Below, one piece after another: positions 15,495 through 53,275 of a stretch of 64,000 bases of DNA. Position numbers and translations under genes: made by a program. Under the pieces are notes generated by a model. The model did no database searches. It worked only from the letters and a program-made list of their open reading frames with translations, and was not told the origin of the DNA. Positions within the stretch are counted from its first letter, which is position 1. Every line of letters starts with the position of its first letter. Source of the stretch: Escherichia phage NJ01; the sequence record NC_018835.1; one strand, written 5' to 3'.

Positions 15495-15503
15495 TAATGT
15501 ATA
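15495..15503 (+). promoter_or_regulatory. TAATGTATA promoter-like element
   Basis: Exact TAATGTATA 33 nt upstream of ATG at 15537, RBS AAGGAGGA between. Confidence 0.45.
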
Positions 15504-15536
15504 TTCTTTGTCTACATATAACAAGGAGGACAACCT

Positions 15537-16289
15537 ATGGCGATGCCAGAAGTGCAAAACCCGATTAACACGTATGGCTGGCTTAAGAAAGCTGTTGCCT
15601 TGTGGGCCGATCGAGACGATGATGAATTTGTTAATCAAATTCCAAACTTTATTAACTTTGCAGAGAAAGAGATTTATCGTAACTTACGTATCCCTCCTCT
15701 GGAAAAAGAAGTGTATTTAGATATTAAAGATGGAGTAGCTTACATTCCTCCTGATTACTTAGAAGCTCAATGGATGATGAGAGCCAAAGATGGTACAATC
15801 TTCCAAGTAACATCTCCTGAAGAGATTAGCTATCGTAGACAGCATGGAACAATTAACCCATCTCATTGGAATAACCAACCTGTTAACTTTGCTCGTTTCG
15901 GTAGTCGTTTCATTTTCTACCCTAGTATTGAAGCAGATACTCCTGTTTATCCTGATGATGGAAGTCCTTTGATTCCAGCAGAAAACTCAGTAATTCTCAG
16001 TTATTATGCAGACCCACCGGAATTCCATGAAGATGCAGATACCAGTGCTATTCTTACTATTGCACCAGAACTTCTTCTGTATTTCACTCTACGTCACGCT
16101 TGCTTATTTGTTCAAGATGATAATGGAGTTCAGAAATGGTCTGCATTAGGAAAAGCTATCCTTGATGAAATGGTAGAACAGAATAAGAAACAAGAGTACT
16201 CAGGTTCACCTATCGCAATTCCGAATAACATGACTCGACTTCAGAGCAGCTTGCCTGACATTTATGGTATTCGTACTTCTCGTGTATAA
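15537..16289 (+). CDS. virion structural protein (250 aa), possible head-tail adaptor
   Basis: Position after capsid; no motif recognised. Confidence 0.4.
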   Translation: MAMPEVQNPINTYGWLKKAVALWADRDDDEFVNQIPNFINFAEKEIYRNLRIPPLEKEVYLDIKDGVAYIPPDYLEAQWMMRAKDGTIFQVTSPEEISYRRQHGTINPSHWNNQPVNFARFGSRFIFYPSIEADTPVYPDDGSPLIPAENSVILSYYADPPEFHEDADTSAILTIAPELLLYFTLRHACLFVQDDNGVQKWSALGKAILDEMVEQNKKQEYSGSPIAIPNNMTRLQSSLPDIYGIRTSRV

Positions 16290-16298
16290 GGAGATAAT

Positions 16299-18857
16299 AT
16301 GATCGTTTATAATAACCAAGCACCTGATGCAGTGAATAACGTTGGGCAGTTTGGTGCTACTGAAGGCTCTATCGGAGCTTACAAGCAAGCAGCAGAATAC
16401 GCAGCTGACTCCAAATATTGGGCACTGCTAGCGGAATCTAAGTTTGGTACAATTGATGACTTGATCGCTGAAGTAGAACGTCTGTATCAACAAGGTGTTC
16501 TGATGAAGCAGGATATTGAAGATCTTAAACAAGATTTTAAAGATCAAGATGCTCGTCTTATGACCTTGATTGCCCAGACTAACGCAGCTGTTTCTGATGC
16601 GAATAACGCTGTTGCTTTAATCAATCAGAAACTTATTGAAGTCCAGAATCAGCTTGACGTTCTGTTAGGAATGTCCGTTGATGTAACCACACTTCCTCCG
16701 GGAACTCCGGCTACTGGTTCTTTTAATCCTAACACTGGTGTAATCTCTCTAGGTATCCCAGAAGGCGAACCCGGAAAGGATGGTTCTGTTAAGGATTTAG
16801 ACACAGCTCCTACTGGTGTTCCAGAGCTAGGTGATTTAGGTTTCTATGTTGACAAAGATGACAATACCGTCCACAAAACTACTCTAGATAACATTGCTAA
16901 CTTAATCCCATCTGTTCGTTCTGTCTCTATTAACGGCGGTCCAGCTCTTGATGGAGAGGTTGCTCTAATACTTAACAAAGAGACGGTAGGTTTAGGAAAT
17001 GTTCTGAACGTCGCTCAGTACAGTCGTCAAGAGATTAATGACAAATTTGACAAGACTACCAAGACATACCAATCAAAAGCAGAAGCTGATGCTGATGCTC
17101 AGTATCGTCAAGTAGGTGAGAAAGTTTTAGTTTGGGAAGCTACTAAGTATGAATTCTATACTGTTGCTGCTAACAAAACACTGACTCCTGTTAAAACTGA
17201 AGGTAGAATTCTTACCGTTAACTCTCGCTCTCCAGACTCAAGCGGTAATATCGATATCACGATTCCAACAGGTAACCCGTCTTTGTATCTTGGTGAAATG
17301 GTAATGTTCCCTTACGACCCATCTAAGAATATCTCCTACCCAGGAGTTCTTCCTGCTGATGGTCGTCTGGTATCAAAAGAATCTGCTCTCGACTTAGGCC
17401 CATCTCTTGTCAGTGGTCAGCTTCCTGTAGTCTCTGAAACTGAATGGCAAGCAGGGTCTAAACAATATTTCTCATGGGGTAAGCTAGCAGATGGGATTAC
17501 TGATGCGGATTCTACTAATTTCATCAATATTCGACTTCCTGATTGGACTGGAGGGGAGGCAATAAGAGCACCAGATTCTGATAAAGATTCTCAATACAAT
17601 GGGTCTGTACAGGCTCAGAAACCTTATGTTGTCACGGTAAATAACCAAGCTCCTGATGAGATTACAGGGAACGTAACCCTCTCCAGATCTATCTTGGGAG
17701 CAGCTTCTTCTGGTGCAAACTCTGATATAACATCCCTGACAGGACTCACTACAGCTCTCTCTATCGCTCAAGGTGGTACAGGAGGGAAAACTCCATCTGA
17801 AGCTAGGGCAAACCTAAATCTTGAAAGATTTCAACAAGACAACTCGCAGACTTTGATATATTCTCCTGATTATGCCCGTCGTGTTTATGTTGACAACACT
17901 GGTGGTTCTTGGGGGTGCCAGAACGTAACAGATGGCGGTTTTATTGCTCTTGGTATTCCTCAAGGGGGTACAGGGGCTAAGGATGCTGCTGGTGCACGAA
18001 GTAATCTCGGTTTGGGTTCAGTGTCCACACTAAACAATATACCCGTAGCTAATGGAGGTACTGGAGCAACTACTGCTGCTGGTGCTCGTTCCAACTTAGG
18101 TCTTGGGAGTGTTTCTACTCTGGATAATGTACCTATTGCTAATGGTGGGACAGGGGCAGCTGATGCTGCTGGTGCAAGGTTTAATATTGGAGCACTAAGC
18201 AGCACCCCAGCAAATACAGGTGTTGGTGGTACTGGTAATCGCGTCCAACATGCATCCGGGAATGGCCTGTTTACTTTAGACATGTTTAACTGCTACTGGT
18301 ATATGCAGCCAGAGGATACTAACTTCTGGGTTGCCCACAGTGTATCATATGCAGGATCTGGTGGCGAAGCCTCTGGATACGGTCGTATAACTTACGCAAT
18401 AAAGATTGCAGATGGAACAACAAAATATGTCCATTGTCTTACAAACAAAAATACTATTACCGATGTAAGCGGTTTTATCAAAGCGGCATCTCCGGTAGTT
18501 AATATTTACGCCAACGGTCGATATGAGACGAACGATGAATCTGAGGGGGTCAATGTCATTCGGCAAGGTGTCGGTGAGTATTTGATTACCGGTTGCCTCG
18601 GCTTAAACGCAGATGCAAAATGGGGAGGTATCGACGGCGGCTTTGAAATCCCTATTGACCGCAACAAACAGCCTAGGGTTTGGCTTGATTATGAGGTTAA
18701 AGAAGATGGTTCTATTTTAGTCAAGACCTATCACAGAACCCATTCAACATCCCCAGTTTTTGCTAGAAACGAGTTGGAAGGTTTTTCTGACGGTGACCCA
18801 ATCGATATCCCTGCTGATGCTTTCATATCAGTTCGTGTTGAAATGCCTTCTAAATGA
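16299..18857 (+). CDS. tail fiber protein (852 aa) with internal tandem repeats
   Basis: Three tandem GGTGAxxAAGARSNLGLGSVSTLxNxPxANGGTG units; long fibrous Gly/Thr/Ser-rich composition. Confidence 0.6.
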   Translation: MIVYNNQAPDAVNNVGQFGATEGSIGAYKQAAEYAADSKYWALLAESKFGTIDDLIAEVERLYQQGVLMKQDIEDLKQDFKDQDARLMTLIAQTNAAVSDANNAVALINQKLIEVQNQLDVLLGMSVDVTTLPPGTPATGSFNPNTGVISLGIPEGEPGKDGSVKDLDTAPTGVPELGDLGFYVDKDDNTVHKTTLDNIANLIPSVRSVSINGGPALDGEVALILNKETVGLGNVLNVAQYSRQEINDKFDKTTKTYQSKAEADADAQYRQVGEKVLVWEATKYEFYTVAANKTLTPVKTEGRILTVNSRSPDSSGNIDITIPTGNPSLYLGEMVMFPYDPSKNISYPGVLPADGRLVSKESALDLGPSLVSGQLPVVSETEWQAGSKQYFSWGKLADGITDADSTNFINIRLPDWTGGEAIRAPDSDKDSQYNGSVQAQKPYVVTVNNQAPDEITGNVTLSRSILGAASSGANSDITSLTGLTTALSIAQGGTGGKTPSEARANLNLERFQQDNSQTLIYSPDYARRVYVDNTGGSWGCQNVTDGGFIALGIPQGGTGAKDAAGARSNLGLGSVSTLNNIPVANGGTGATTAAGARSNLGLGSVSTLDNVPIANGGTGAADAAGARFNIGALSSTPANTGVGGTGNRVQHASGNGLFTLDMFNCYWYMQPEDTNFWVAHSVSYAGSGGEASGYGRITYAIKIADGTTKYVHCLTNKNTITDVSGFIKAASPVVNIYANGRYETNDESEGVNVIRQGVGEYLITGCLGLNADAKWGGIDGGFEIPIDRNKQPRVWLDYEVKEDGSILVKTYHRTHSTSPVFARNELEGFSDGDPIDIPADAFISVRVEMPSK
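17950..18200 (+). repeat. about 60-nt tandem repeats inside tail fiber gene
   Basis: Three near-identical units encoding ANGGTGAxxAAGARSNLGLGSVSTL. Confidence 0.6.
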
Positions 18858-26762: not shown

Positions 26763-27797
26763 ATGGCGTATGGAATATGGACAAGACCGGTCGGTCCGGG
26801 GCCAGCAGCACCTGCTGATATTTACATTGACAGTGGTAGCACATTCCCTCAGTTAAGAAACAGGGTCAGTGGTAATTTTTCTTTTAATGGTAACACATGT
26901 GATCTACCTATAAGCGGTTGGGATGGAAGTGGTCAGATAGTTGTAGTCCCAACAGGGTCTGTTGTTTGGGAGAGATACATACCTCCTAATGTAACATCTG
27001 ATGTGTATTGGCTAACGGATATATCTGTTATTAATAACTCAACCTTCAGAGTTACTATGGATTATAATGTAAACGGTTGGGTATTTGATATGGCTTTTAA
27101 TGTATATCAAATATGGCCTAGAGCTAACAGGAACTATGGAATCACATTCTCCAACTCTGCTGACTATTTCTCAATCTCTGATTCTGGAGTTGTTGGTCAA
27201 TGTATTTGGGCTTGGGAGGGTGACATAAATGGTGCTCTTCAAATACCAGATATTGGTGGTTTTGATATGAGCCGAGCAACTGTCTACGCGAATTGGAGTA
27301 ACGGCGGAGCAGGTCTGCTATACAACCCATCCAATAGGGTTGTTTATGTGTACCAGAACAGGTCTCATGATAATGGTAACACAAACCAAACAGGGTACAT
27401 TGGTGGTGTTAGGATTGCCGTCTTCTGTGATGGTTCGGGAGTACCAACCCACAATGGAGGTTTAAATATCTTTTCTCCAAATGGGTCTCAGTGTGTTTTT
27501 TCTACATATAGAACCCCTTTTAGTGTTGAGGGGTTTATGCCTATGAGTGGTGGTAACACATCTTTGGCCTATCCAATGATACCTCTATCTTATGGTGCTG
27601 GAGCAATAAGAGGTAAGGCTAGTGGTTGGTATTTTCAACACACAAGATCTCACATGATGAATGGCTCTTCTTTTGGTACAGGTTTCGGAAGGATGATTTA
27701 CTCTTGGAGTAGTCAATATGATTTAGGAGGGGGTGGTGCCCTCGGGTTAAGTATTCCAATATTAGATGCTAGAAAGATATTCAGGAGTATACAATAA
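26763..27797 (+). CDS. tail/structural protein (344 aa)
   Basis: ORF track; Gly/Asn/Ser-rich. Confidence 0.45.
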   Translation: MAYGIWTRPVGPGPAAPADIYIDSGSTFPQLRNRVSGNFSFNGNTCDLPISGWDGSGQIVVVPTGSVVWERYIPPNVTSDVYWLTDISVINNSTFRVTMDYNVNGWVFDMAFNVYQIWPRANRNYGITFSNSADYFSISDSGVVGQCIWAWEGDINGALQIPDIGGFDMSRATVYANWSNGGAGLLYNPSNRVVYVYQNRSHDNGNTNQTGYIGGVRIAVFCDGSGVPTHNGGLNIFSPNGSQCVFSTYRTPFSVEGFMPMSGGNTSLAYPMIPLSYGAGAIRGKASGWYFQHTRSHMMNGSSFGTGFGRMIYSWSSQYDLGGGGALGLSIPILDARKIFRSIQ

Positions 27798-30655: not shown

Positions 30656-32305
30656 ATGCAACAGACAACTTATGCTCAGGTCAGAAGTCGCGACCCGAGA
30701 AATACTTTCTATGGTGTTAATCCGGGAGCGGCTTCGGCCTCTCCTTATATGGCTAGACCTATTCAGACATCAGATGTTTCTATGTACCAACGTCCTGCTG
30801 TACCTGCTGGACTTTCCCGTCTTGTAGGTCAAACTTCAGTAGATTATCAGAACATGCTGAACCCTGTTCAGAGTAATGGACTCCCTTCTGATATTCCTAA
30901 TGACGTACAACCTCAAGCACAACAAGCTGTAACTCTTCCTGAGCCTAACAATCAGGAAACTGTGCAAGATGCCGGACCTTCTCCTTCTTCTATTCCTCAG
31001 GAATCAGAACCTCTTCCGGTAACACCTCCCACTAAACCGCTAGAAGCTGGTCCTATGGAGTTTACTCCTTCTCAGGTGGAACAGGCACAAGGTGTGGTTA
31101 ACACTCTTGCTCAAGGACAAGACACTGGTGATGGTATGGCTGCTGCTACTCGTGCTAAAGATCAGGAACGTGTTAACAATGACATCATGCAGGTTGCTAA
31201 AGCTAAAGACCCTTCAGAAGCTTGGAATAAACTACAGAAAGAACCTTTCTATCAGAACTCTAGTTTCTATACAGGTTTGATGGGTGTAGGTCTCTCTATC
31301 ATGTCAGGTAAGTCTCCTATCGAAGCGTTCCAGATTGGTCAAGGAATGGCTAATCAAGATGAGACTAAGAAGCAACTAGAAGCTAACCGTGATGCATTGG
31401 TTGAACAGGGTTTCTCTCAAGACTCAATTGCAGCTGCTATAGCTCAGGGTGATCCTTCTCTTCTGAAGATGAAAGCTAAAGACCCTCTTCAACAGGAAGC
31501 TCTGTATGCTGCTCGTGAAGAACGTCAGAATGCTGAGTGGGATAGACGTCAACAGATTCAAGAACAGACTATGCGTGAGCGTGCTGATGAGACTCGACGT
31601 GCCGCTGAAGAAAGAGCTAACATGAACTTTGAACGTCAGAAAGAGTTGATCGGCTTCCGTGATAAGGTTAAGGCTGAACGTGCTGAACAAGCTGCTCAGA
31701 GTTTTAACTTTAACCCGAAAGAAGTTCGTCTTGCTCAGAACACCGCTGAAGGTACAGTTGCTAAGCAGTGGGCTGAGAAGGGTGGTCTGTTTAATCAGTC
31801 CAACAAAGACTTGGATTTGGCTGACAAAGCAGTTAAAGATAAAGATTACCAGACAGCTCGTTCTGCTTACATGCAGGCTATTATGAACTCTGCAAGGGCT
31901 GAAATTGGTGCTACTCGCTCTCTTACCGAAGAAGACTTGGGACATTTTGCAGAAGACCCATCGGTCTTTATCCGTGTAGGTAACAAGTTTGCTCTGAAGT
32001 CAGGATGGCGTCCTACTGACTCTGCTCTTTCTTATGCTCGTAAGCAGGCCAATGTTGGTCACACCTCTGCGATGAAAGGTGTTGCTGATGCTAAGAGAGC
32101 TACTATCGAAGCATATATTGGTTCTGGTATGGACAAGAAAAGAGCTACTGCATTGGTTAACCGTGCAATTCCTTCTGGTGGTTTCTATGACCCTCTCGGT
32201 GTTTTCTCTGAGCAAGCAGAAGAGTCAGTTGGTGGTGCAGCAACCAATCCTAAACTGAATGGTGCTCTATCGGCTGTTGAAGACACTAGCTGGTTCACTG
32301 AGTAA
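30656..32305 (+). CDS. internal virion protein with hydrophobic segment (549 aa)
   Basis: Pro/Gln-rich N-terminus, hydrophobic FYTGLMGVGLSIMSG, coiled-coil. Confidence 0.45.
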   Translation: MQQTTYAQVRSRDPRNTFYGVNPGAASASPYMARPIQTSDVSMYQRPAVPAGLSRLVGQTSVDYQNMLNPVQSNGLPSDIPNDVQPQAQQAVTLPEPNNQETVQDAGPSPSSIPQESEPLPVTPPTKPLEAGPMEFTPSQVEQAQGVVNTLAQGQDTGDGMAAATRAKDQERVNNDIMQVAKAKDPSEAWNKLQKEPFYQNSSFYTGLMGVGLSIMSGKSPIEAFQIGQGMANQDETKKQLEANRDALVEQGFSQDSIAAAIAQGDPSLLKMKAKDPLQQEALYAAREERQNAEWDRRQQIQEQTMRERADETRRAAEERANMNFERQKELIGFRDKVKAERAEQAAQSFNFNPKEVRLAQNTAEGTVAKQWAEKGGLFNQSNKDLDLADKAVKDKDYQTARSAYMQAIMNSARAEIGATRSLTEEDLGHFAEDPSVFIRVGNKFALKSGWRPTDSALSYARKQANVGHTSAMKGVADAKRATIEAYIGSGMDKKRATALVNRAIPSGGFYDPLGVFSEQAEESVGGAATNPKLNGALSAVEDTSWFTE

Positions 32306-32325
32306 TACCTAAGTCCTGCCTTCTA

Positions 32326-32334
32326 TAATGTATA
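32326..32334 (+). promoter_or_regulatory. TAATGTATA promoter-like element
   Basis: Exact TAATGTATA 37 nt upstream of ATG at 32372. Confidence 0.45.
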
Positions 32335-32371
32335 TAGGGGGTAGGACATTTTATTTATAAAAGGAGACGTT

Positions 32372-35300
32372 ATGGCTAACATTAAACCGTGGGAAGAAGC
32401 TTCCAAAGCTCCTGCGTATCTGAATGCCTCTCCGGAGCGTCAAGCTCAAATGAGAGAACAATATAAGGCAGCAGGTGGCTCTATTCCTGAGGAACAACCA
32501 GTAGCACAACCACAACAAGAAGAACGTGGTGCTGTAGGTGAGTTTGCTCAAGGTGTGTCAAATGCTCTTCAGTCCGGCAGTGCTAATATCTCTGCTAACC
32601 TTTCTAGAGGTATTGGTGGTTTAGTTGAGATTGGTGAAGACCTAGTTGGAGCACAAACCGGCTATGGTAAACGTATGCAAGAGAACGCCCAGAACCTTCT
32701 TAAAGATCGTATGGATAAGATTGAGGATGGGATTGGTAAAACTGCTGGTCAGTATGCTGGAGTGGTTGCTGACATTGGTTTGACAGTTGCTAACCCGTTA
32801 GCTGCCGCTGCTATCATCGCAGGTCGTGAGACAGGTCGTGCATATGCAGACCAAACCCCTAAAGAGGGAGAAGACAAATCCGTTCTGGATGCAGCTCTTG
32901 TTGGTGGTGCTAACTATGCAGCTCAGAGAATTCTTCCGGGTGCTGTTGGTACAGCTGAATCCGCACTTGGTCGTATCGGTCAGAACGTTGCTAGTAACGC
33001 AGTGGCTGGTGCTAAGGGTGGTGCTATTGTTGGTGCTGCTGAAGCTCAGAACAAACATGGTGACGATAACAACCTAGCCAAGACATTAGAAGGTGTTATA
33101 GAAGAAGGGGCTATGGGTGCTGCATTTGGTGGTGCAGTTGGTGGTGTTCATGGTTTGATTAGTCGTCCAGATTCTGCTGTCTTTAAGAATACTCCAGAGT
33201 ATGCAAAGACTGACATTGCTGCTGATGATGAATTAATTCGTAGTGCTAAGAACGTTGATGAACTGAAAGAAGCCTACTCTAAAGCTGATACTGCTAACGC
33301 TGCTTCTGCTCTTAATCTTCTGGATGAGAATGGATTCCGTATCACGGACGCTGTTGCTGTGGATTCTCCTGCTGCTCAGCGTATTCTTAATACAGACCAA
33401 GCTCGTGCTGAGAAAGCTGCTTCTGCTCAGAAAGAGCATTCTAACATTCCGGGCCTTAATCCTTTGGCTTCTCCTGCTAAAGTTCGTGGTAAAGCATTCG
33501 CTGATAATGAACACAATCAGAAGCAAGCTGTCGCTATGAAAGATGCAATGGCTGACTACACCAAGGATAACACGAAAGCTCTTACAGATGTTCTAGATAA
33601 CCTAGACCGTGAATTAACTTCTCTTAGAGCATCTGGACACTTCACCGGTAGTCCACTTGACGTTAAGAATCGCACACAAGCTGACCGTGATTTCATTGAT
33701 GCTTACAAGACTTTCTACAACGAGGCGAATCGATTCAAAGCTCGTGATGGTGAAGACTTTAATAACTTTGTAGAGAAAGCTGCTGAGCTACAGAAGATGG
33801 CTGATAACGTTTCTCCAGAGATGAAGAAAGCTATTGGCGGGTTGAAGAAACTGAAAGGTATGCCTGAAGGTTTTAATCCCATTCAAGATGCCTACACTCT
33901 GAACAATACAGCTAAATTCATGAGCAACCAAGACCGTGGTTGGACTTCCCTGACTGATGATGGCTTCCGTGAGACTTCTTCTCCTAGTCTGGTTATGAAC
34001 ACCCTTGGTGCTGCTAAGTATGCTATAAACCGCTTCTCTTCTCAGCGTGCTCGCTCTCAACGTGTTAAGCAACAAGAGGCTAACAGTGAAGCTATCCGCT
34101 CTCTGGCTCGTGGTGATTTGGAAGTTGCTCGTGCTAAATCTACTGCTGATGAAGCTCGTGCTAAAATGGAAGAAGAACCAGTTGTTGATGACATTAAATT
34201 CAAGACGCAAAATGACGTAGAAACCGAACCGGTTCGGGAGCCTTCTTCTAGTACTGTGACGGAAGAAAATCTTCCTTCTTCTGCTCCTCAAGAATCTCCT
34301 CTTACAGCTCGTGATTTAGTTGCGCAAAGACGTGCTATCCGTCAGGCTGAACAGCGTCGTGCTGAAGAAGAGGCAGCTGCTGCTCAAGAAGCTCCGGTTG
34401 AACAGGCTCCACAGGCTGAACCACTCCCTGCTCGTAATCCTTTAGAGGAACGTCGTGCAATGGAACAGCAACGTGCTCAAGAAGAGGCCGCACAGGCTCC
34501 AGAACCAACCGTAGAGGAACCAACAGCCAAAGCTGAGCCATTACCTGCTCGTGCTCCTAAAGCTCCTGAGGAAGCTGTACAGGACGTTAAACCGGAAAGC
34601 GGTATAGAGTACCTAGCTGCTATGTCAAGTACTGCTCGTCAAGTTGCTAGAGATCGTGCAACACGTTTTGCTAAATCCTTATACTCTAAGGCTGCTAAGG
34701 CTAAAGCTACTGCTGAAAACTTCTTAGCTTACAAAGGCGACCCTTTGGAGTTGATGCGTCGTATTCGTCGGGAAGATAATGCTATCAACACTGAACGTCA
34801 TGAAGAGATGGCTCGTAATCAGTTAGCTTCTCAGCAAGGTATTGCTACTGCTAAGAACAACACTGTACGAACTAATTTTGCTGAATGGGTTAAGGAACGT
34901 GGTCTGCCAGAAGACATTGCTACTAAGGCATTACGTGCTGAAGAGAAAGGTTTAGGTGGGAACGTGACTAACTTAGATAGTCTGAAACGTCGTGCTGAGA
35001 GATTGTATCAGAAGCAGCGTGAGGATGAGTTTGATAGGCTGTACCAAGAAGCTCTGGAAGAGAACAAAGCTTTCGATAAGAAGGATGCTCCTAAATTGGT
35101 TGACCAGAAGAAAGAGCTTCAGTCTGAGATTGATACTTTGATTGATTCAGAACCTTTACGTCCTGCTCAGAAAGATGCTATGCGCAAGCTGATGAATGAT
35201 TATGTAGATGGGAAGTTTAAATCTTCAGAGAAGGCTGGTAGAGAAGAGGCTTTGGAAGTTGGTCAGATGAAGGATGTTTGGGATGGGTTTATTAACACCT

Positions 35301-36793
35301 ATAACAGAGAAGTGAATGCCTTCAACAAAGCTAACAAGAACTCTCAATACGAAGCTGCTGCTAAACACTTGCAGGCTCGTGAAGAACGTCTTGCTACTCT
35401 GAGAAATAAAGCTCAGGCTCGTTCAGATGCTAAAGCTGCTGTTGAAAATGAACGTAAAACTCTAGAGGCTATTGCAGCTCAGAAGAGTGAGATTGAGAAG
35501 ATGATGGAAGGTTTACCTAAGCCTGTTCGTGAAGCTCAGGAATCTCGTACATTGAAACAGTTGGCTGCTCACCATGATAAGAACTCTCCAGTTCCTCCAG
35601 AGAAGTTCCGTAGTTACATTGAACGTATCCATAACGCCGAGTCAGATTACCTTGACCGTCAGCGTCGTTTAACTGATGCAGAGGAAGATGCTCGTCAGGC
35701 TAAGTGGAATAAGATGTATGAGCAAGCGGAAGAGATGGACCGTAAATTTGATATAGACAAAAGAGTTAAACGCAGTGAAGAGCTTAAAGCGGCTCAGAAG
35801 CGTGAGAATGATCTCATGGCAGTACAACGTCAACGTGACGACATTCATCGTCGCCTGATGCATACTTTGGAAGATAAAGGCATATCTAAAGAGGATGCTG
35901 AAGCATTTGCTGGTTCCTACATGGATAACCGTTATGCACTTCTTGATAAGCCTATGACTCCTACTGAACATCAGAATGCTCGTTCTCGTATCGAAGCTGA
36001 TGTTGAGAAGTTTGCTAAGAAGTACGAATCAATGACCCCTATCGAGAAAGAGATTGTTAAGATTACTGGAGATACTGAAGGTAAGCTTGATAACTTGGAT
36101 GCGGATACTAGGAAGGCTGTTGAGGAGGCTCAGAAGGTTGACTCTGATATTAAGAAACTGCAAGAGGAAGAGTTGGAGATGGAGAAGATTCGTTCTGCTC
36201 TGCCTGACGATGAAAAATCTCAAGCAAATTCTGATATCTTGGAAAGTATCAAACAGCAGGAAGAAGTCTTTGCTGATAAAGTAGAGAAAGCTTTCTTAAG
36301 CGGGAAGAGCTTGGATGAGTTGGCTAGTGTGGCTGAAGTTTTAGACAGGGTTCATGGTGCAGACAAGGCTGGTAACAACCGTCGCTTTGTACGTGCATTG
36401 CAGACTGCTGCTGAAAACAAGAAGAAGTATGGTGATAATCCGGTAGCTTGGTTTAGTGCTGATGATTATTCTGCTATTGCTAAACTTGGTGCTTCTTCCG
36501 CAGGTGGTAACAAATCTAGAGCACTGGAGAAGATCTTTGGTTCTACAGCTGAACAAGCTAAGAGTAAGTTGCTTGGTAGGGATGATGTAGCGAAGATGAG
36601 ACGTGTAATTGAAGAGAACCCTGATGTTAAGATTCCTTCTTACAAGACAACGAATCGTACTGAGTACTTGCAGTTCTTGGAGAAGTTTAATGACGAAGGG
36701 AAGCCGAAGATTAAACGTGGCTCATTGTCAGAGAAGCTTGAACGCAGTAAGCGTCAATCGAGACTCCGTGTAAGAGTTCGACCTAAGGAGTGA
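32372..36793 (+). CDS. large internal virion / ejection protein (1473 aa), coiled-coil rich
   Basis: Very long charged alpha-helical ORF at end of structural module; not clearly a tape measure. Confidence 0.55.
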   Translation: MANIKPWEEASKAPAYLNASPERQAQMREQYKAAGGSIPEEQPVAQPQQEERGAVGEFAQGVSNALQSGSANISANLSRGIGGLVEIGEDLVGAQTGYGKRMQENAQNLLKDRMDKIEDGIGKTAGQYAGVVADIGLTVANPLAAAAIIAGRETGRAYADQTPKEGEDKSVLDAALVGGANYAAQRILPGAVGTAESALGRIGQNVASNAVAGAKGGAIVGAAEAQNKHGDDNNLAKTLEGVIEEGAMGAAFGGAVGGVHGLISRPDSAVFKNTPEYAKTDIAADDELIRSAKNVDELKEAYSKADTANAASALNLLDENGFRITDAVAVDSPAAQRILNTDQARAEKAASAQKEHSNIPGLNPLASPAKVRGKAFADNEHNQKQAVAMKDAMADYTKDNTKALTDVLDNLDRELTSLRASGHFTGSPLDVKNRTQADRDFIDAYKTFYNEANRFKARDGEDFNNFVEKAAELQKMADNVSPEMKKAIGGLKKLKGMPEGFNPIQDAYTLNNTAKFMSNQDRGWTSLTDDGFRETSSPSLVMNTLGAAKYAINRFSSQRARSQRVKQQEANSEAIRSLARGDLEVARAKSTADEARAKMEEEPVVDDIKFKTQNDVETEPVREPSSSTVTEENLPSSAPQESPLTARDLVAQRRAIRQAEQRRAEEEAAAAQEAPVEQAPQAEPLPARNPLEERRAMEQQRAQEEAAQAPEPTVEEPTAKAEPLPARAPKAPEEAVQDVKPESGIEYLAAMSSTARQVARDRATRFAKSLYSKAAKAKATAENFLAYKGDPLELMRRIRREDNAINTERHEEMARNQLASQQGIATAKNNTVRTNFAEWVKERGLPEDIATKALRAEEKGLGGNVTNLDSLKRRAERLYQKQREDEFDRLYQEALEENKAFDKKDAPKLVDQKKELQSEIDTLIDSEPLRPAQKDAMRKLMNDYVDGKFKSSEKAGREEALEVGQMKDVWDGFINTYNREVNAFNKANKNSQYEAAAKHLQAREERLATLRNKAQARSDAKAAVENERKTLEAIAAQKSEIEKMMEGLPKPVREAQESRTLKQLAAHHDKNSPVPPEKFRSYIERIHNAESDYLDRQRRLTDAEEDARQAKWNKMYEQAEEMDRKFDIDKRVKRSEELKAAQKRENDLMAVQRQRDDIHRRLMHTLEDKGISKEDAEAFAGSYMDNRYALLDKPMTPTEHQNARSRIEADVEKFAKKYESMTPIEKEIVKITGDTEGKLDNLDADTRKAVEEAQKVDSDIKKLQEEELEMEKIRSALPDDEKSQANSDILESIKQQEEVFADKVEKAFLSGKSLDELASVAEVLDRVHGADKAGNNRRFVRALQTAAENKKKYGDNPVAWFSADDYSAIAKLGASSAGGNKSRALEKIFGSTAEQAKSKLLGRDDVAKMRRVIEENPDVKIPSYKTTNRTEYLQFLEKFNDEGKPKIKRGSLSEKLERSKRQSRLRVRVRPKE

Positions 36794-39412: not shown

Positions 39413-40696
<1,284 letters not shown>

Positions 40697-40988: not shown

Positions 40989-41735
40989 TTAGAATGGGCT
41001 ATCGTTGTCGTCTTCGTAAGTAGAAGCAGGCTCTCTATCAATCGTAGGGATTGAAGGAGTAGCTTCTTTCTGTTCTGTCTCAGAAGCACGAGTAATTTCA
41101 CGACCAGCCAGAGGCATGTTCTTAGCGTCATTAGCTTGAGTAAGCAGGTTGCGCTGGAACGGGAACATCAGTTGATAGGATGCTACGTTCTCATCGGTTT
41201 CAGCATACGGTTCGAAGAATACCAGAGGACTACGAGCTTCACCAACTGCTGCACGATATTTGGTTGGGATTGGAGAAATGGTTTTGATGGAGTTTTTAAC
41301 TTCACCAGCTTTATTAGTGTAAGAGTTAACCAGAATGTTGACAGGCTGACCTAACAGTACATCCTTAAACCAAGACAGATCACCTTTCAGTGCTTGAATG
41401 CTTGGGTCAATCATCTTGCAGAGATCAAGGATACCAGAGTTCTTAGCTCGTGGGTTTACATCATAGCTCTTGAACTGGCAAGCAGGACGTGGTTCTAATG
41501 CCTTACCATCGGAATCTTTACCAGTAGCATCAACACCAATCAGCTCGAAAGCCAAATCCATACGGAAAGCTGGATTCTTAGGAGTTACTGCTTTGGTCTT
41601 CGGGTCAATCCAAGGGTCACGATTGTGAACACCCAAACCTACTACACGAACAATACGTGCTTCGTACTCGCCATCAGGGATAATGTCGTAGTTGGATTTA
41701 CGAGAAGAAGTTGCGATAGTTGGAATCATAGACAT
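40989..41735 (-). CDS. putative single-stranded DNA-binding protein
   Basis: Acidic C-terminal tail ending EDDNDSPF (SSB/gp2.5-like tail with terminal Phe); first gene after large intergenic region. Confidence 0.45.
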   Translation of the reverse strand: MSMIPTIATSSRKSNYDIIPDGEYEARIVRVVGLGVHNRDPWIDPKTKAVTPKNPAFRMDLAFELIGVDATGKDSDGKALEPRPACQFKSYDVNPRAKNSGILDLCKMIDPSIQALKGDLSWFKDVLLGQPVNILVNSYTNKAGEVKNSIKTISPIPTKYRAAVGEARSPLVFFEPYAETDENVASYQLMFPFQRNLLTQANDAKNMPLAGREITRASETEQKEATPSIPTIDREPASTYEDDNDSPF

Positions 41736-41794
41736 ATTTTAATTTCCTTATTTAATTTGAAAGATTGTTGCTCTCTTTGAGCGGTTATGTATAA

Positions 41795-41803
41795 TATACA
41801 TTA
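41795..41803 (-). promoter_or_regulatory. TAATGTATA promoter-like element (minus strand)
   Basis: + strand TATACATTA; 59 nt upstream of SSB-like start; overlaps a TATAAT hexamer. Confidence 0.4.
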
Positions 41804-41866
41804 CGCTTATACCGATAAGAGTGCTATATAATATAAGTATCTTTGGTAGTAGATATAACACATTAG

Positions 41867-41875
41867 TAATGTATA
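41867..41875 (+). promoter_or_regulatory. TAATGTATA element on + strand, divergent from 41795-41803
   Basis: Exact TAATGTATA; no + strand ORF downstream. Confidence 0.3.
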
Positions 41876-41971
41876 TATTGTATAGCTGATAAAGTTATTG
41901 CAGGCTTGTATATTGGGCAATTCACAGAATCCCTTGCAAGTACCGAAGGGCAGGAGCCACCTGCGAGATAA

Positions 41972-42037
41972 AAATAGAGAATTAAGGAATCCTTGATTTA
42001 GGTTGTAGGGACTCCTAGGGACTTTGATTCTCTATTT
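41972..42037. repeat. 11-bp perfect inverted repeat AAATAGAGAAT / ATTCTCTATTT with 44-nt spacer
   Basis: Arms 41972-41982 and 42027-42037; spacer has secondary near-palindrome GGAATCC. Confidence 0.55.
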
Positions 42038-42151
42038 AAAAGAATATTAATTACTTACTACCTAAATAATTAACTAACTTACTTAAACCAAATTCAAGAA
42101 TAATAGATAAAAAGATTATTCCTAAGAAAGCTAAAAAGTAAAGTATATAAG

Positions 42152-42316
42152 TTACCATTCAAGTAAACCTTTAAAGTTAGATTGTTCTACTATTCGCTGA
42201 TAACGAAGATTAGAATCAGCTTGTTTCTTTAACATCTCATTATATTGGTCTCTGATAGAGTCTTTATAAACTACAGGTTCTTTAAATAATGAGATCTTGT
42301 TCTTTTCTTCTTTCAT
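42152..42316 (-). CDS. hypothetical small protein (start uncertain)
   Basis: Track ORF 42152..42400 overlaps phosphoesterase; internal Met used. Confidence 0.3.
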   Translation of the reverse strand: MKEEKNKISLFKEPVVYKDSIRDQYNEMLKKQADSNLRYQRIVEQSNFKGLLEW

Positions 42317-45167: not shown

Positions 45168-47012
45168 TTAGTGTGTATGCATCCAGTTAAGTCCAATCTG
45201 ACAATCAGATGCCAGAGGACATTCCATGTTCAAATACTCACCAGCTTTCTTAACGCAAAGCTCAGTGTGCTCTTTGAGTTTCTGTACATCATTACGATTC
45301 ACTGAGAACTGGCCCTCATCGTGCATGTCAATTACCTTCGCACAGCGAACTCCATCTTTCTCAATCCACTTGTTAAGGAACATCATAGCATATTTCATAA
45401 CAACAGCACCAGCGCATTGCAGGAGTGTGTTAAGAGCTTTATGAACCATAACCTTACCAGTGGCATCTCGTCTCATTGTAATCTTACGACCATCAACACC
45501 AATCAAGTATCCTTGAGCAGCTTTCTCTGTCATACGATCAATGAGGATTGCAATACATGGGTTCTCTGCCAAGAATCGTGCTCGCATCACTGAACCTTCG
45601 TCAGCCCCACCACCTACAATTGAACCGAGCTTAGCGTCACCAGCACCATAGTTGAATGCGTAGATAAACGTCTTAGCGTTGTCACGAGTAGGAAGACCAG
45701 CAAGTTTCTGGTTGTGGGAGTGAATATCACCTTCAAGGAGGATATCACGATACATAATAGCAGAAGCTAAACCACGCTCTGCCAGAGCTTTCTTAGCTGG
45801 ATTGTTCTCTTCAATTGCTTCAGCAAGCATATCCCTACACTCTTTAATGAGGTAGTGTGCAAGCATACGCAATTCTAATCCAGAACCATCATACCCTAAG
45901 AATACTTCTTTACCAGCGGGTATGTAATATTTGTAAGCACCTACAGGTTTATCTTTCTTCCCCGGCTTACCTTTCTCGTAAATTACGTTAGTACCTTTTC
46001 GTATATAACAACCATCAGGAACAACGTTAGTAATAACGAAAGGACGAGAGTGATCACCATCTGAGTTACAGTCAGACTCAAACAAACCGCGACACTCATG
46101 ACCAAACAAACCACGGGAGGGAATATTAACCACGATACGATGTTTGAATCGAAAAGTCGGCGTAGCACAGCTGTTAGCTTCTGCCGAAAGTTTACCATCT
46201 TCGCGTTCCTTTGCTATGAGTCCACTGATAAGACCTAGCCTGTGAGCCGCTACAACGCGTCTCTTAAGCAAACTTCCGACACTCCCTAGCTCACCCCCTA
46301 ACCCTTCTTCAAGAGTCTCCTCGAGGTTTGTAGGAGCTGTAGGCCACTTGTTTGAGGTAGCTAGTGCTATCTTAATCTCATCAAAAGTGATAGGTCTACG
46401 TCGGTTAGGATTTAAACCTAAACCAAATACATAAGCCTTCATGTAGTTCTTAGTTTTAAACCTAAAATGCTTCTCTAAGAACTTCCTAATATCAGCGTCA
46501 ACCATCTCGGCTGTCTGCTTCTGTTTAGCATTACCTCTCATCCAAGCTGAATACCACGCTTGGTATGTTCCATACTTTCGCATATCTTTCTTGATTTCAA
46601 AAGTATTCCAAGGTTTCTTTGATACGTTAAACTCTGGAGGAAGAAAACCCTCATCCATAAGGGCTTCTTTAACTCGTGCATCTTTCGATGGGTCAAAGTC
46701 CACGTATTCAACACAGGTGAATGCTCCACCAATGTCTTCTCTCTTAAGACCAACTCTATCACAATAGGCTTGAGGCCACTTCTGTAAAGCTCCAGACTTC
46801 TTAAATGGCTTCATATAAGTAGAGCCATCTAATCTCATCTTAGGTAAGAGAGGAATCAGTTCTTTGTCAATATTAACAATAATCTCTTTAAGGAGGTGAA
46901 CATACCACCGAGCATTTCTTCGGTTGAAACTCACTCCGTGCTTCGCTTGCTTAGAGATTATATCAGCGACAGTCATCTCTGTCAAAAATGGGAGAGCGTC
47001 CGGGTTGCTCAC
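45168..47012 (-). CDS. DNA polymerase, family A (T7 gp5-like), polymerase domain only
   Basis: Motif A YDGSGLELRMLAHY, motif B RDNAKTFIYAFNYGAG, motif C VIDMHDEGQF; no exonuclease motifs in this ORF. Confidence 0.85.
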   Translation of the reverse strand: MSNPDALPFLTEMTVADIISKQAKHGVSFNRRNARWYVHLLKEIIVNIDKELIPLLPKMRLDGSTYMKPFKKSGALQKWPQAYCDRVGLKREDIGGAFTCVEYVDFDPSKDARVKEALMDEGFLPPEFNVSKKPWNTFEIKKDMRKYGTYQAWYSAWMRGNAKQKQTAEMVDADIRKFLEKHFRFKTKNYMKAYVFGLGLNPNRRRPITFDEIKIALATSNKWPTAPTNLEETLEEGLGGELGSVGSLLKRRVVAAHRLGLISGLIAKEREDGKLSAEANSCATPTFRFKHRIVVNIPSRGLFGHECRGLFESDCNSDGDHSRPFVITNVVPDGCYIRKGTNVIYEKGKPGKKDKPVGAYKYYIPAGKEVFLGYDGSGLELRMLAHYLIKECRDMLAEAIEENNPAKKALAERGLASAIMYRDILLEGDIHSHNQKLAGLPTRDNAKTFIYAFNYGAGDAKLGSIVGGGADEGSVMRARFLAENPCIAILIDRMTEKAAQGYLIGVDGRKITMRRDATGKVMVHKALNTLLQCAGAVVMKYAMMFLNKWIEKDGVRCAKVIDMHDEGQFSVNRNDVQKLKEHTELCVKKAGEYLNMECPLASDCQIGLNWMHTH

Positions 47013-48211: not shown

Positions 48212-48529
48212 TTACGATGAGCTTAAAGCTCCTTTTCGTGCTCCAGCCGCTTTTCCAGCTCGATCACCACTTTTGCCGCCGTTTGAACGGTTTGAGCTGA
48301 CTGATTCAACACGTAAGTTGCTTGACGCATTAGAGCCTCCAGACTTGACAGCTCGTTTGTGTCCAACATCTTTACCTCTGACAGCAGCTTTTCCATCGCG
48401 CTTTTCAACGATGCGACGTGCACGGTGGCGCTGAGCATCTCCGCTCTTGCTACCAATTCCCGTTTCACCACGGGCAATTGCGGTACGTCTTTCTTGTGCA
48501 TAATCTCTCTTTCCTACATGGTCTGCCAT
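48212..48529 (-). CDS. basic low-complexity protein (105 aa)
   Basis: ATG at 48529 with AAGGAG RBS at 6-nt spacing; TAATGTATA element 37 nt upstream. Confidence 0.45.
   Translation of the reverse strand: MADHVGKRDYAQERRTAIARGETGIGSKSGDAQRHRARRIVEKRDGKAAVRGKDVGHKRAVKSGGSNASSNLRVESVSSNRSNGGKSGDRAGKAAGARKGALSSS
48223..48501 (-). CDS. alternative-frame ORF (92 aa, helical) fully inside 48212..48529
   Basis: Own ATG with AGGAAAG upstream; which frame is expressed is unresolved. Confidence 0.3.
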   Translation of the reverse strand: MHKKDVPQLPVVKRELVARAEMLSATVHVASLKSAMEKLLSEVKMLDTNELSSLEALMRQATYVLNQSAQTVQTAAKVVIELEKRLEHEKEL

Positions 48530-48565: not shown

Positions 48566-48574
48566 TATACATTA
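48566..48574 (-). promoter_or_regulatory. TAATGTATA promoter-like element (minus strand)
   Basis: + strand TATACATTA between PhoH stop and next gene start. Confidence 0.45.
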
Positions 48575-48585
48575 TAAGTTACTGT

Positions 48586-49323
48586 TTAAGCTTTCTTTTC
48601 CATTGCTTTAACAATCGCCTTACAGAAACCAGAACGAACAATGTCATCTGATTCCCCATCTACTATCTCAGCGAACTCATACAGATCATGTTCATCAATA
48701 AAGTTAGTAGCCCAAGTAAGACCACTCTCACGACCACGCATATCATGCTGGTTAGTATCACCCATGCAGAACAGCTGAGAGGTCTCTCCCAATCGAGTCA
48801 TGATTGAGAAGGCTTCATCTTTAGTGGTGTTCTGGAACTCATCTACGATAACAATAGCATCATTGAAAGAACGACCACGGAGATACTCCAGAGGTACGAA
48901 CTCAATATTACTGTTACCGAGCTGGCATTCATAGAACCCTTTACCATATCGCTGAGTAATAACATCAATGATAGGCATCAAATATGGTTCAAACTTCTCA
49001 CGCATCCCTCCCGGAAGCAACCCAAGAGAATTACCCATGCCGACCGAAGGGCGACTCAAGATAATCTTCTGAATCTTACCACTCTTCAGTGCATCGATAA
49101 CCGTGGAAGTGATTACAAAGGTCTTACCACAGCCCGCAGGAGCGTCTGTGAACACAACTTGTTTAGTCTTGATAGCATTGAGCAGTTCAGACTGGAACTG
49201 GTTCTGAGGGACTACAGGCTTTGCTAAAACCACCTCTTCAAACTCGCGCTTACCCTTACGAGTGACAAGTGCTTCCCGACGAAGGTCTTTCCGTGATTCT
49301 TTCCGTGATTGACGACGACTCAT
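48586..49323 (-). CDS. phoH: PhoH-like ATPase
   Basis: Walker A TDAPAGCGKTFV, Walker B-like IVIVDEFQN. Confidence 0.75.
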   Translation of the reverse strand: MSRRQSRKESRKDLRREALVTRKGKREFEEVVLAKPVVPQNQFQSELLNAIKTKQVVFTDAPAGCGKTFVITSTVIDALKSGKIQKIILSRPSVGMGNSLGLLPGGMREKFEPYLMPIIDVITQRYGKGFYECQLGNSNIEFVPLEYLRGRSFNDAIVIVDEFQNTTKDEAFSIMTRLGETSQLFCMGDTNQHDMRGRESGLTWATNFIDEHDLYEFAEIVDGESDDIVRSGFCKAIVKAMEKKA

Positions 49324-51236: not shown

Positions 51237-51446
51237 TTAATATTCTTTTACATAATAAACCACTAAGGTTCCCATCTCTGACAATGTTGATTTATGTAAG
51301 CTTACTTTACTATAAATCTTTGGGGCCATCTTAAGAGCCTTCTTAAAACGGCGAGCATCTTTACGAGTAGCAAAGTGCTCTGTAACAGGTATAGCCGGGT
51401 CTTGGTAGAGGTAATATACCACCGTCCAATATTTTTTCATAATCAA
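51237..51446 (-). CDS. small protein, member of four-copy paralog family
   Basis: Shares TRKDARRFKK core and C-terminal Tyr with 53300..53915 trio. Confidence 0.45.
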   Translation of the reverse strand: MIMKKYWTVVYYLYQDPAIPVTEHFATRKDARRFKKALKMAPKIYSKVSLHKSTLSEMGTLVVYYVKEY

Positions 51447-51715
51447 ACACCTAGGGCAGTAGTTAAGAATGCTTTCAGGTTTGCTTCGGTCTGCATACCA
51501 GAGAGACTATAGTGTGCACCACTATTACGGTCAGGTACAACGAAAGCAGGGATGCTTCTTACACCATACTTAACAGCTTGTTCACGACCATCACCTTCAA
51601 GGATGTTAATCTCTTCTACTTCTACATCGAACTCCTTAACAACCTTCTCAAAGGTAGGAGCCATTGCTTTACATGGAGCACACTGATCACTATAAAACTT
51701 AATCACTTTAGACAT
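51443..51715 (-). CDS. thioredoxin-family protein (start moved to ATG at 51715)
   Basis: CAPC active site (FYSDQCAPCK), cis-Pro region RSIPAF. Confidence 0.65.
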   Translation of the reverse strand: MSKVIKFYSDQCAPCKAMAPTFEKVVKEFDVEVEEINILEGDGREQAVKYGVRSIPAFVVPDRNSGAHYSLSGMQTEANLKAFLTTALGV

Positions 51716-51716
51716 T

Positions 51717-51893
51717 CTATTCCTTGTTAATAAACAGGTTGATATGACGTTGGGTAGCAGGAACAACAATAAAAGATTTATACTGACCTTTTGCTAAGTC
51801 ATGAGCAATCTTCTTTGTCTGACCAAGACCCATCACACAGCCACTAACAATAATGGCGTGTGCTTGCAACTCTTCAGGGAGTTTTAGTTTCAT
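51717..51893 (-). CDS. small protein (58 aa), below ORF-track size cutoff
   Basis: ATG at 51893 with AAGGAA upstream; stop overlaps thioredoxin start (TAGAATG). Confidence 0.3.
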   Translation of the reverse strand: MKLKLPEELQAHAIIVSGCVMGLGQTKKIAHDLAKGQYKSFIVVPATQRHINLFINKE

Positions 51894-51905
51894 TCTTCAG
51901 GTTCC

Positions 51906-52091
51906 TTACAGCATAGCAAGAATGATAATAAGAGGTAATGTTATAGCGAAATTAATAAGAACAGCGCTGCCTAGCTTGATAGCTTTAACATCCTCTTCTG
52001 ATGGGTTTTCTTTAATTGCTAAATTTCGAGCTTTATATATAACAGTACCAATTATTAACGACCACACGGCCCACACAATCAGTGAAATCAT
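51906..52091 (-). CDS. small two-TM membrane protein
   Basis: MISLIVWAVWSLIIGTVIY...INFAITLPLIIILAML. Confidence 0.45.
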   Translation of the reverse strand: MISLIVWAVWSLIIGTVIYKARNLAIKENPSEEDVKAIKLGSAVLINFAITLPLIIILAML

Positions 52092-52100
52092 ATCAAACCC

Positions 52101-52280
52101 TTATGCAGTCAGGAGGTGAAGCAGGAATGGGATAACAACAGCTACGACAACCATGATGGTTGATGCTGTTTGAATCTCACCTTTCTTGTCAGGGGTTTCT
52201 TCAATAAGCTTGCCAGAAGCCCAATAGATACCACCACCAATAAAGACAGCCCAAATACCCCATACGATTGCTGATAACAT
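52101..52280 (-). CDS. small two-TM membrane protein, paralog of 51906..52091
   Basis: Translation MLSAIVWGIWAVFIGGGIYWASGKLIEETPDKKGEIQTASTIMVVVAVVIPFLLHLLTA; track ORF 52142..52396 is another frame. Confidence 0.45.
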   Translation of the reverse strand: MLSAIVWGIWAVFIGGGIYWASGKLIEETPDKKGEIQTASTIMVVVAVVIPFLLHLLTA

Positions 52281-52341
52281 ATATCTATATCCTTATAAAT
52301 AAGTTCGCCCCACCTCGGGTTAGGAGACAGGGCGGAGGTTT

Positions 52342-52953
52342 TTAGTAAGACACATCGCCACTTGAGTGGGACATGTTGCTCTTGACGAAGTAGCAATACT
52401 TGCCAAGACCTTCATTAATTTCTTGAAGCATACTCTGATCAACTGGATAAGTGGCTAAATCACCATCAAACTCATCCATCTTCTCAATAATACACATCAA
52501 GGTCATGCACATATCAGAGAGCATACCGTCCATATCTAGGTCAGCATTACCCTCTGAGAACCAAGCATGGGAGAGATAATTGGCTGCTGTGGCGTCCACT
52601 TTAACACAGTGGTAACGCATACGTTCAGCAATACGATCTCCTACTTGTCGTGCGTAATCTTCCAGCTCATCAAACATACCATGAACACCCTGAAATCCTG
52701 CACCAGAGACGTTCCAATGGTAGTTTTTAGCTTTGATATGCAAGAGTTCCATGTTAGCTTGTAAGCAGCTCAGGATGTGTTCTAGGCTGTTTCCACTAAT
52801 CATACCCTGCATTGTTTCAAGGCGAGAGATTGAAAGCTCGGACCGATCTAACATATTGTATTCGACACGACCAATCTCGGGTAAGTCAAAGACATTCTTA
52901 TGCATTTGGGTTTTCTCCATCAAGTTCAACTGAGTTAGCAACATTACGTGCAA
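52342..52953 (-). CDS. Dps / ferritin-like protein (start uncertain)
   Basis: HIKAKNYHWNVSGAGFQGVHGMFDELEDYARQVGDRIAERM matches Dps ferroxidase helix pair. Confidence 0.6.
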   Translation of the reverse strand: MHVMLLTQLNLMEKTQMHKNVFDLPEIGRVEYNMLDRSELSISRLETMQGMISGNSLEHILSCLQANMELLHIKAKNYHWNVSGAGFQGVHGMFDELEDYARQVGDRIAERMRYHCVKVDATAANYLSHAWFSEGNADLDMDGMLSDMCMTLMCIIEKMDEFDGDLATYPVDQSMLQEINEGLGKYCYFVKSNMSHSSGDVSY

Positions 52954-53227
52954 TATTATCCATTACCTGCTGGGTAATTACGATGCAGTTCTGCGGGTCT
53001 ACTGACTTAGAACGCCCCATTTCAGGGTCATACACCTTAACTCGCTTAGCAGTTGAACCTGTAACCTGAAGAACCTTCAACAGATATCCCTGATTACCAA
53101 TAGACCAAGCAACAACATCACGATTCTTGATAAAGCGACCAAGCATATCACGATGATAAAACTGTTGCATCACCTTGGATTTTGTAATCTCTTCAGTGGG
53201 CGGGGCCACTTTACTCAAATCTAACAT
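52898..53227 (-). CDS. hypothetical protein (109 aa)
   Basis: ORF track; overlaps annotated Dps start. Confidence 0.4.
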   Translation of the reverse strand: MLDLSKVAPPTEEITKSKVMQQFYHRDMLGRFIKNRDVVAWSIGNQGYLLKVLQVTGSTAKRVKVYDPEMGRSKSVDPQNCIVITQQVMDNIARNVANSVELDGENPNA

Positions 53228-53266
53228 AACTCTCTCCTGTAAAATACAAATTCTTATTGTACTCTA

Positions 53267-53275
53267 TATACATTT
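53267..53275 (-). promoter_or_regulatory. variant AAATGTATA element (minus strand)
   Basis: + strand TATACATTT, 40 nt upstream of gene start at 53227. Confidence 0.3.

Follow-up and report, generated by a model that had tools for sequence, protein, structure and literature searches.

Why should one short A/T-rich sequence recur ahead of genes on both strands of a phage genome that also encodes a sigma factor of its own? The question is raised by a stretch of 64,000 nucleotides (nt) from Escherichia phage NJ01 (sequence record NC_018835.1), called the window below, in which the 9-mer TAATGTATA and close variants of it precede several genes. An earlier note, made from the letters of this DNA alone, had started from the premise that the middle and late promoters recognised by gp36, the sigma factor of phage phiEco32, carry a tAATGTAtA consensus, and had proposed that the present phage uses the same scheme and is related to that lineage. 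Both parts of the proposal hold up well: the elements are almost certainly the −10-like core of the promoters from which a phiEco32-type coliphage (genus Kuravirus) transcribes its middle and late genes. A seventh, antisense site that emerged from the same analysis is less easily placed and is treated separately.

The recurring element matches six phiEco32 promoters

The window belongs to a Kuravirus, that is, a phiEco32-like coliphage. About 58 of its 64 kilobases (kb) align to phiEco32 (NC_010324) with collinear gene order and an identity that is mostly 91–97% (range 78–97%). A megablast search with a 6-kb and a 25-kb stretch matched some 100–135 GenBank phage records, mostly Escherichia phages of the phiEco32 group, and the nearest records are those of Kuravirus phages, which, with the high identity and collinearity, places the window in this genus of the subfamily Gordonclarkvirinae, whose type member is phiEco32 itself.

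The promoters of phiEco32 were reportedly mapped by experiment by Pavlova et al. in 2012, as cited in later papers. This consensus is indeed in print: the six middle and late promoters of the gp36 holoenzyme share a single tAATGTAtA element, with transcription starting 6–8 base pairs (bp) downstream of it (PMC4331800, PMC4281155, PMC8948821). In one of these papers TAATGTATA is the experimentally determined consensus, and tAATGTAtA is placed ahead of phiEco32 genes 6, 13, 26, 40, 58 and 68 (PMC4331800); another describes three middle and three late promoters read by the phage sigma factor and lists the same six in phage SU10 (PMC4281155); a supplementary table in the third gives TAATGTAgA for P6, TAATGTATA for P13, P26, P40 and P58, and aAATGTATA for P68 (PMC8948821).

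When the regions upstream of these six phiEco32 genes were aligned to the window, six window sites could be paired one-to-one with P6, P13, P26, P40, P58 and P68. All six lie upstream of, and are oriented with, the orthologues of genes 6, 13 and 26 (late) and 40, 58 and 68 (middle), and at every one of them the single conserved element is present as the exact 9-mer or a published variant of it. The 9-mer is taken here as positions −15 to −7, after the published numbering. On the plus strand, the P6 counterpart is TAATGTAGA at 8019–8027 (predicted start ~8034; gp6 orthologue 8039–8512), the P13 counterpart is TAATGTATA at 15495–15503 (predicted start ~15510; gene 15537–16289, which encodes a virion structural protein and is followed by tail genes), and the P26 counterpart is TAATGTATA at 32326–32334 (predicted start ~32341; gene 32372–36793). 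On the minus strand, the P40 counterpart is TAATGTATA at 41795–41803 (predicted start ~41788; gene 40989–41735), with a transcription unit that extends to the sigma gene; the P58 counterpart is TAATGTATA at 48566–48574 (predicted start ~48559; gene 48212–48529), with the DNA polymerase gene (45168–47012) downstream; and the P68 counterpart is AAATGTATA at 53267–53275 (predicted start ~53260; gene 52898–53227). The last five of these six are the sites that the earlier note had listed, four as exact copies and P68 as a variant. Their positions and strands were recovered without change, and so was the distance of 33–59 nt to the start codons (33, 37, 59, 36 and 39 nt in the order given). What the list had missed is P6 and two further exact copies on the plus strand, at 27098–27106 and 41867–41875.

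The conservation of these sites was followed in an alignment of promoter footprints from phiEco32, SU10, ECBP2, SU7, EP335 and KBNP1711, which covers the genera Kuravirus, Suseptimavirus and Nieuwekanaalvirus. Wherever the site could be aligned across the three genera, the cores of P13, P26, P40, P58 and P68 are unchanged, while their flanks are 75–97% identical. P6 reads TAATGTAGA in phiEco32, SU10 and ECBP2 as well, and KBNP1711 was aligned there with one extra base.

Could the 9-mer nevertheless recur by chance, as a functionless word of an AT-rich genome? Counted on both strands of the whole window, exact TAATGTATA is found six times (at 15495, 27098, 32326 and 41867 on the plus strand and at 41795 and 48566 on the minus strand, the variant AAATGTATA at 53267 on the minus strand coming in addition), against 0.69 copies expected as the mean of 100 dinucleotide-preserving shuffles. 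None of the shuffles reaches six, the maximum being three. For the 8-mer AATGTATA there are seven copies against 2.5 expected, a number that 2 of the 100 shuffles attain. Chance might seem to gain from the count with one mismatch allowed, which shows no enrichment (22 against 20.1 expected); yet since this count equals expectation, the signal is specific to the exact motif and is not a product of AT-richness. Seven of the eight matches to AATGTA[TG]A fall in the ~8% of the window that is non-coding, with 41795 and 41867 counted there after discounting two spurious 37-codon open reading frames (ORFs) that are absent from the phiEco32 annotation. A recurrence without function is also hard to square with sites that are non-coding, correctly oriented and unchanged in three genera despite diverging flanks, and that in phiEco32 are experimentally mapped promoters. 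The copy that does suit it is the one at 27098–27106 (+), which lies within the gp21-orthologue gene (26763–27797) over codons N-V-Y, is absent in phiEco32 and, among the aligned loci, recurs only in KBNP1711, which has the same allele of the gene. Chance is thus effectively refuted for the six syntenic sites, and as a general account of the motif its probability is negligible; it remains the best reading for the 27098 copy, which is probably a chance occurrence.

The phage sigma factor and gp79 are nearly identical to those of known structure

The promoter system of phiEco32 is known in atomic detail from a 3.4 Å cryo-electron microscopy (cryo-EM) structure, published in 2025, in which RNA polymerase is bound to gp36, gp79 and promoter P68 (PMC12276001). 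In that structure AATGTA occupies −14 to −9 (centre −11.5) and the N-terminal domain of gp36 reads A-14, A-13, T-12 and G-11. Its C-terminal domain touches G-37 and, across from A-34, the T of the other strand, and transcription is lost when these bases are mutated. As for gp79, it drives region 4 of the host sigma factor off the polymerase and makes the binding of gp36 there more stable (PMC12276001). The window encodes both phage proteins on its minus strand. The gp36 orthologue (39792–40436; 214 amino acids) is identical to PDB 9m7y chain F at 213 of 214 positions, the sole difference being K28R, and the gp79 orthologue (59443–59691) is identical to chain G over all 82 of its 82 amino acids. 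Residues E79, H80, Y83, R84, W90, S91, S94, N95, Y186 and R187 are all present in the window sigma factor, and so is every residue for which the structure paper names a contact to DNA, to the clamp or to the flap-tip helix. Together with the collinear genome and the syntenic promoters, these identities bear out the proposal that the phage shares both the scheme and the lineage of phiEco32.

The earlier note had called the product of 39792–40436 an ECF-like (extracytoplasmic function) sigma factor. That it is a sigma factor stands, and the term is fair to its two-domain architecture, which for gp36 is known from the cryo-EM structure (PMC12276001); the curated thresholds for ECF or sigma-70 regions, on the other hand, are not reached. 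The protein scores 23 bits against TIGR02937 (cut-off 42.9) and 19.1 against Pfam Sigma70_r2 (cut-off 24), and a profile search of it returned no match to sigma region 4. ECF-type promoters are bipartite, with −35 and −10 elements of the form AAC ... CGT. The sites described here have a single A/T-rich −10-like element and no common −35 hexamer. 'ECF-like' is therefore a description of architecture and not of family membership.

Because the sigma factor is 99.5% and gp79 100% identical to their phiEco32 counterparts and the promoter cores are the same, we infer the same course of events for this phage. Early genes would be read by host sigma-70 RNA polymerase, after which gp36, a minimal sigma factor with sigma-2-like and sigma-4-like domains, and gp79 would be made. 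By removing host sigma region 4 from the polymerase, gp79 would also stabilise the C-terminal domain of gp36, and the gp36 holoenzyme would then read A-14, A-13, T-12 and G-11 of AATGTA, melt the DNA from −11 and touch the purine at −37 and the A at −34, so that transcription would start about 7 nt past the 9-mer. On the plus strand P6, P13 and P26 would head virion, tail and lysis genes, and on the minus strand P40, P58 and P68 would head genes of replication and nucleotide metabolism. As P40 lies upstream of the sigma gene, its activity would provide positive feedback.

The upstream contacts can be traced in the window. At P68 the box TGGTAGTAGATA (53287–53298, −) provides G-37 and A-34, the bases contacted by the C-terminal domain of gp36. 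The rule of an A at −34 and a purine at −37, derived from the P68 structure alone, holds at all seven non-coding sites. Position −37 is G in three of them (P6, P68 and the antisense copy) and A in the remaining four (P13, P26, P40 and P58), while the 27098 copy, which lies within a gene, breaks the rule with G at −34. It might be asked whether such sites are instead host sigma-70 promoters, or dual promoters of sigma-70 and gp36, which the phage sigma factor would not define. In the SU10 study the region of P68 is annotated with the −35 and −10 elements of a sigma-70 promoter, and the authors consider that both holoenzymes may transcribe middle genes (PMC4281155), and the TTGGTA of the upstream box does resemble TTGACA. 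However, this TTGGTA is 21 bp upstream of TGTATA and not 17, and TGTATA itself, which counted from the mapped start occupies −12 to −7, has neither the A of position 2 nor the T of position 6 that mark a sigma-70 −10 hexamer. A consensus scan, moreover, yields no sigma-70-type site at P13 or P26, and in the phiEco32 complex gp36 itself makes base-specific contacts while gp79 shuts off sigma-70 transcription (PMC12276001). We therefore consider sigma-70 promoters, single or dual, a very unlikely account of the elements.

Three points weigh against reading the elements as gp36 promoters. Start sites and gp36 dependence have been established for phiEco32 only. The −34/−37 rule, coming from P68, was applied to the other sites after they had been inspected. 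Finally, in phiEco32 and SU10 the sigma gene has a dedicated sigma-70 promoter (TGGACA-18-TATAAT), and no sigma-70 promoter is found directly upstream of the sigma gene in the present phage, so that the first gp36 has to depend on some other promoter upstream. The dedicated promoter is missing here because the segment with gene 37 has been deleted: the sigma ORF directly abuts the ORF upstream of it (junction at ~40432–40447, −), and phiEco32 gene 37, which encodes a macro (Appr-1-p) domain, is absent.

Late promoters share an upstream box and adjoin terminators

P13 and P26 have more in common than the core. Both carry AAKACCTA at −37 to −30 (AAGACCTA at 15473–15480 and AATACCTA at 32304–32311, both +), followed by a 14-nt spacer that is identical in each, and the box is kept in other genera. 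It is not present at the middle promoters and may be a class-specific upstream element. The 12-mer TGGTAGTAGATA is found in the window only at P68 and at the antisense copy, equally spaced from the core; confined in this way, it was rejected as a general factor-binding site.

Each late promoter is associated with a hairpin on the plus strand. An intrinsic terminator precedes P6 (hairpin at 7988–8003) and another terminator hairpin precedes P13 (15442–15463). At P26 a terminator-like hairpin with a 15-bp stem and a T-run after it (32313–32347) includes the promoter itself, the ATGTA core forming its 5-nt loop, and its arms covary in SU7 and ECBP2. The predicted P26 start falls inside the 3′ arm, so P26 would give RNA without the hairpin, whereas transcription that reaches it from further upstream could end there.

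The P6 motif ends 11 nt ahead of the ATG of the gp6 orthologue, with a predicted start ~5 nt before that ATG and a Shine-Dalgarno sequence, AGGAG, at −6 to −2 (8019–8041). With the Shine-Dalgarno sequence upstream of the start and so short a gap, P6 transcripts would be nearly leaderless for the gp6 orthologue; the layout suggests that they probably serve the downstream terminase and head genes. At 48575–48592 P58 directly follows the stop codon of the PhoH-like gene, as in SU10, because phiEco32 gene 59 is absent here. The 9-mer of P40 makes up one half of a 19-nt palindrome that is almost perfect, TTATGTATA-A-TATACATTA (41785–41803). The palindrome is kept in relatives, and its other half is a copy of the motif with one mismatch, which lies on the opposite strand and faces P40.

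A seventh, antisense site resembles P68

The exact copy at 41867–41875 (+) is part of a promoter-like site, here called AS for antisense, that spans 41844–41875 on the plus strand and consists of TGGTAGTAGATA, an 11-nt variable spacer and TAATGTATA. It lies within the 315 bp that separate the gene 40 orthologue from the gene 41 orthologue, 72 bp from P40 and facing away from it, and is antisense to all neighbouring genes. The predicted start is A41882, in a GTA context as at P68. In 15 of 15 phages from three genera neither TGGTAGTAGATA nor the 11-nt core TAATGTATATA shows a single change, whereas the 11-nt spacer is free to vary. MN05 is no exception, although its sequence on the side of P40 has been replaced. 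AS is absent from the promoter lists of PMC4331800, PMC8948821 and PMC4281155, a comparison that did not extend to the original 2012 mapping paper, and we found no published account of an antisense transcript or of a replication origin for phiEco32.

Downstream of AS lies a conserved non-coding block (41880–42040, +) made up of a stem-loop, a variable middle module and an invariant long hairpin. The stem-loop (41880–41901, +) starts at the predicted AS start and covaries: one pair appears as C-G, U-A or A-U, another changes from U-A to G-C and a third from G-C to G-U. On the plus strand the predicted structure fits 525 of 540 cells and on the minus strand 456, a preference that is due to the G-U pairs. 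The middle module contains a small hairpin (41950–41964, +) and is replaced by a different, longer module in ECBP2 and MN05. The long hairpin (41973–42036) is followed by UUUUUAU on the minus strand and by only UUU on the plus strand, and is therefore at least a terminator for minus-strand transcripts ahead of P40. Compared in five phages of three genera, the 150 nt past the stem-loop are 86–98% invariant, whereas the adjacent protein-coding gene is 44–88% invariant.

Could AS be a seventh gp36-type promoter? We put forward, tentatively and as less than an even prospect, that Kuravirus and its sister genera carry such a promoter, a twin of P68 at 41844–41875 (+), which would give a structured non-coding antisense transcript of ~160 nt in the gene 40/41 spacer, with the covarying stem-loop at its 5′ end. 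That AS both works as a gp36 promoter and yields a functional transcript is a possibility of roughly one in three. A serious contender, itself short of probable, is that AS is not a working promoter and represents either a by-product of P68 duplication or part of a DNA-level element of the spacer, which could be a protein-binding site, an upstream element of P40 or the minus-strand terminator region. The absence of AS from the three promoter lists accords with its not being a working promoter, as do the lack of a gene downstream of AS on the plus strand and the fact that the long hairpin behind it is a canonical terminator on the minus strand only. That the downstream block is mostly invariant might also be cited here, although by the same token the block offers no covariation evidence either way. 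Other features are more readily understood if AS is a promoter: a box and a core that stay constant in 15 of 15 phages around a free spacer are what a two-part promoter leaves as its footprint; TGGTAGTAGATA occurs only twice in 64 kb, at the same distance from AATGTATA, the other case being the proven promoter P68; and the stem-loop at the predicted start shows covariation, one position taking three types of pair, and folds better on the plus strand (525 against 456 cells).

T7 and T4 have transcription-primed origins. The order seen at AS, a putative promoter followed by an ultra-conserved structured block and then by an AT-rich stretch, resembles them, and by analogy an AS transcript could prime or activate DNA replication; alternatively, it could serve as a regulatory RNA or shield the P40 unit against read-through. 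A small plus-strand protein was considered as the product and rejected, the only ORFs past AS being of 21 and 32 codons, with TTG starts, in the module that is replaced in ECBP2 and MN05; the block contains no conserved plus-strand ORF. Rfam 15 gave no match at gathering score in the whole window, and in a further search nothing at E up to 5 over 41700–42200; the block region drew only chance-level Rfam matches, with E above 1. No second copy of the block is present elsewhere in the genome. Beyond it, 42051–42158 (−) is a 35-codon ORF, the gene 41 orthologue, in an AT-rich stretch; it encodes a very hydrophobic peptide (MVTYILYFLAFLGIIFLSIILEFGL...), and Paul, NC-B, TH34 and Bas86 have a different sequence in its place.

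Genome layout and distribution

Position 1 of phiEco32 falls at ~6394 of the window, and ~6039–6583, which spans the place of the physical genome ends of phiEco32, is the least conserved aligned block (~78% identity). Since the window runs through this end position, the record is circularly permuted relative to phiEco32. Only ~8% of the window is non-coding DNA, no tRNA genes were found in it, and GC skew tracks gene orientation and is uninformative on the replication origin. In wider searches an IMG/VR scan with the sigma protein returned only three loci, a scan of the same collection with the two-part promoter pattern returned only the same few genomes, and a metagenome scan added two relatives and one unrelated, GC-rich chance match. 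Two Kuravirus isolates, RSB02 and RSB04, appear in a study that also contains RNA-seq of E. coli NC101 at 10 min of phage infection (PMC12803456; BioProject PRJNA1225266).

Comparison with known systems

The promoter class described here is already known: it was mapped in 2012, its structure was published in 2025 and it has been reported as conserved across the subgroup. Because the phenomenon has been resolved to the level of atomic contacts in a phage with a sigma factor that is one residue different, finding it in the window is ordinary. Its value is for annotation, in that six transcription units, the sigma factor and its co-activator can now be labelled in this genome. The residual novelty is the antisense, P68-like site and the ultra-conserved non-coding block into which it points, and this is a lead, not a result; if AS fires, an unannotated non-coding transcript, possibly a replication origin, would be added to a well-studied model of how a phage takes over host transcription.

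The closest parallel is phiEco32 itself. The two phages share the same 9-mers, variant for variant (G at position 8 of P6, an initial A in P68), the same downstream genes, the upstream box of P68, the sigma factor (99.5% identity) and gp79 (100%). They differ by a few percent in the flanks, by the lack in the window of gene 59 and of gene 37 with its sigma-70 promoter, and by the upstream box of P26, which is AATACCTA here instead of AAGACCTA. Within the phiEco32 subgroup, Lavysh et al. 2022 (Table S3) list predicted gp36-type promoters in NJ01, ECBP2, KBNP1711, SU10 and 172-1, six per genome; the layout is that described here, with no difference of substance. Their table omits AS, which is present in every genome that we examined.

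More distant is Salmonella phage 7-11, which has a related genome layout, a sigma factor of its own (gp47) and similar promoter positions, but whose late consensus is bipartite, GTAAtg-(16)-aCTA, and whose sigma factor is only ~15% identical; a homologue of gp79 and a middle class are both lacking, and the host is not shut off (PMC8948821). The authors of that study report no matches to tAATGTAtA in 7-11 or GAP52 (PMC8948821). The authors of the cryo-EM study compare the takeover with that by AsiA and MotA in T4, where likewise region 4 of the host sigma factor is put out of action by one small phage protein, and a second phage protein brings the new specificity for middle promoters (PMC12276001). 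The difference is that T4 remodels a host sigma-70 that is retained, whereas here a separate phage sigma factor replaces sigma-70.

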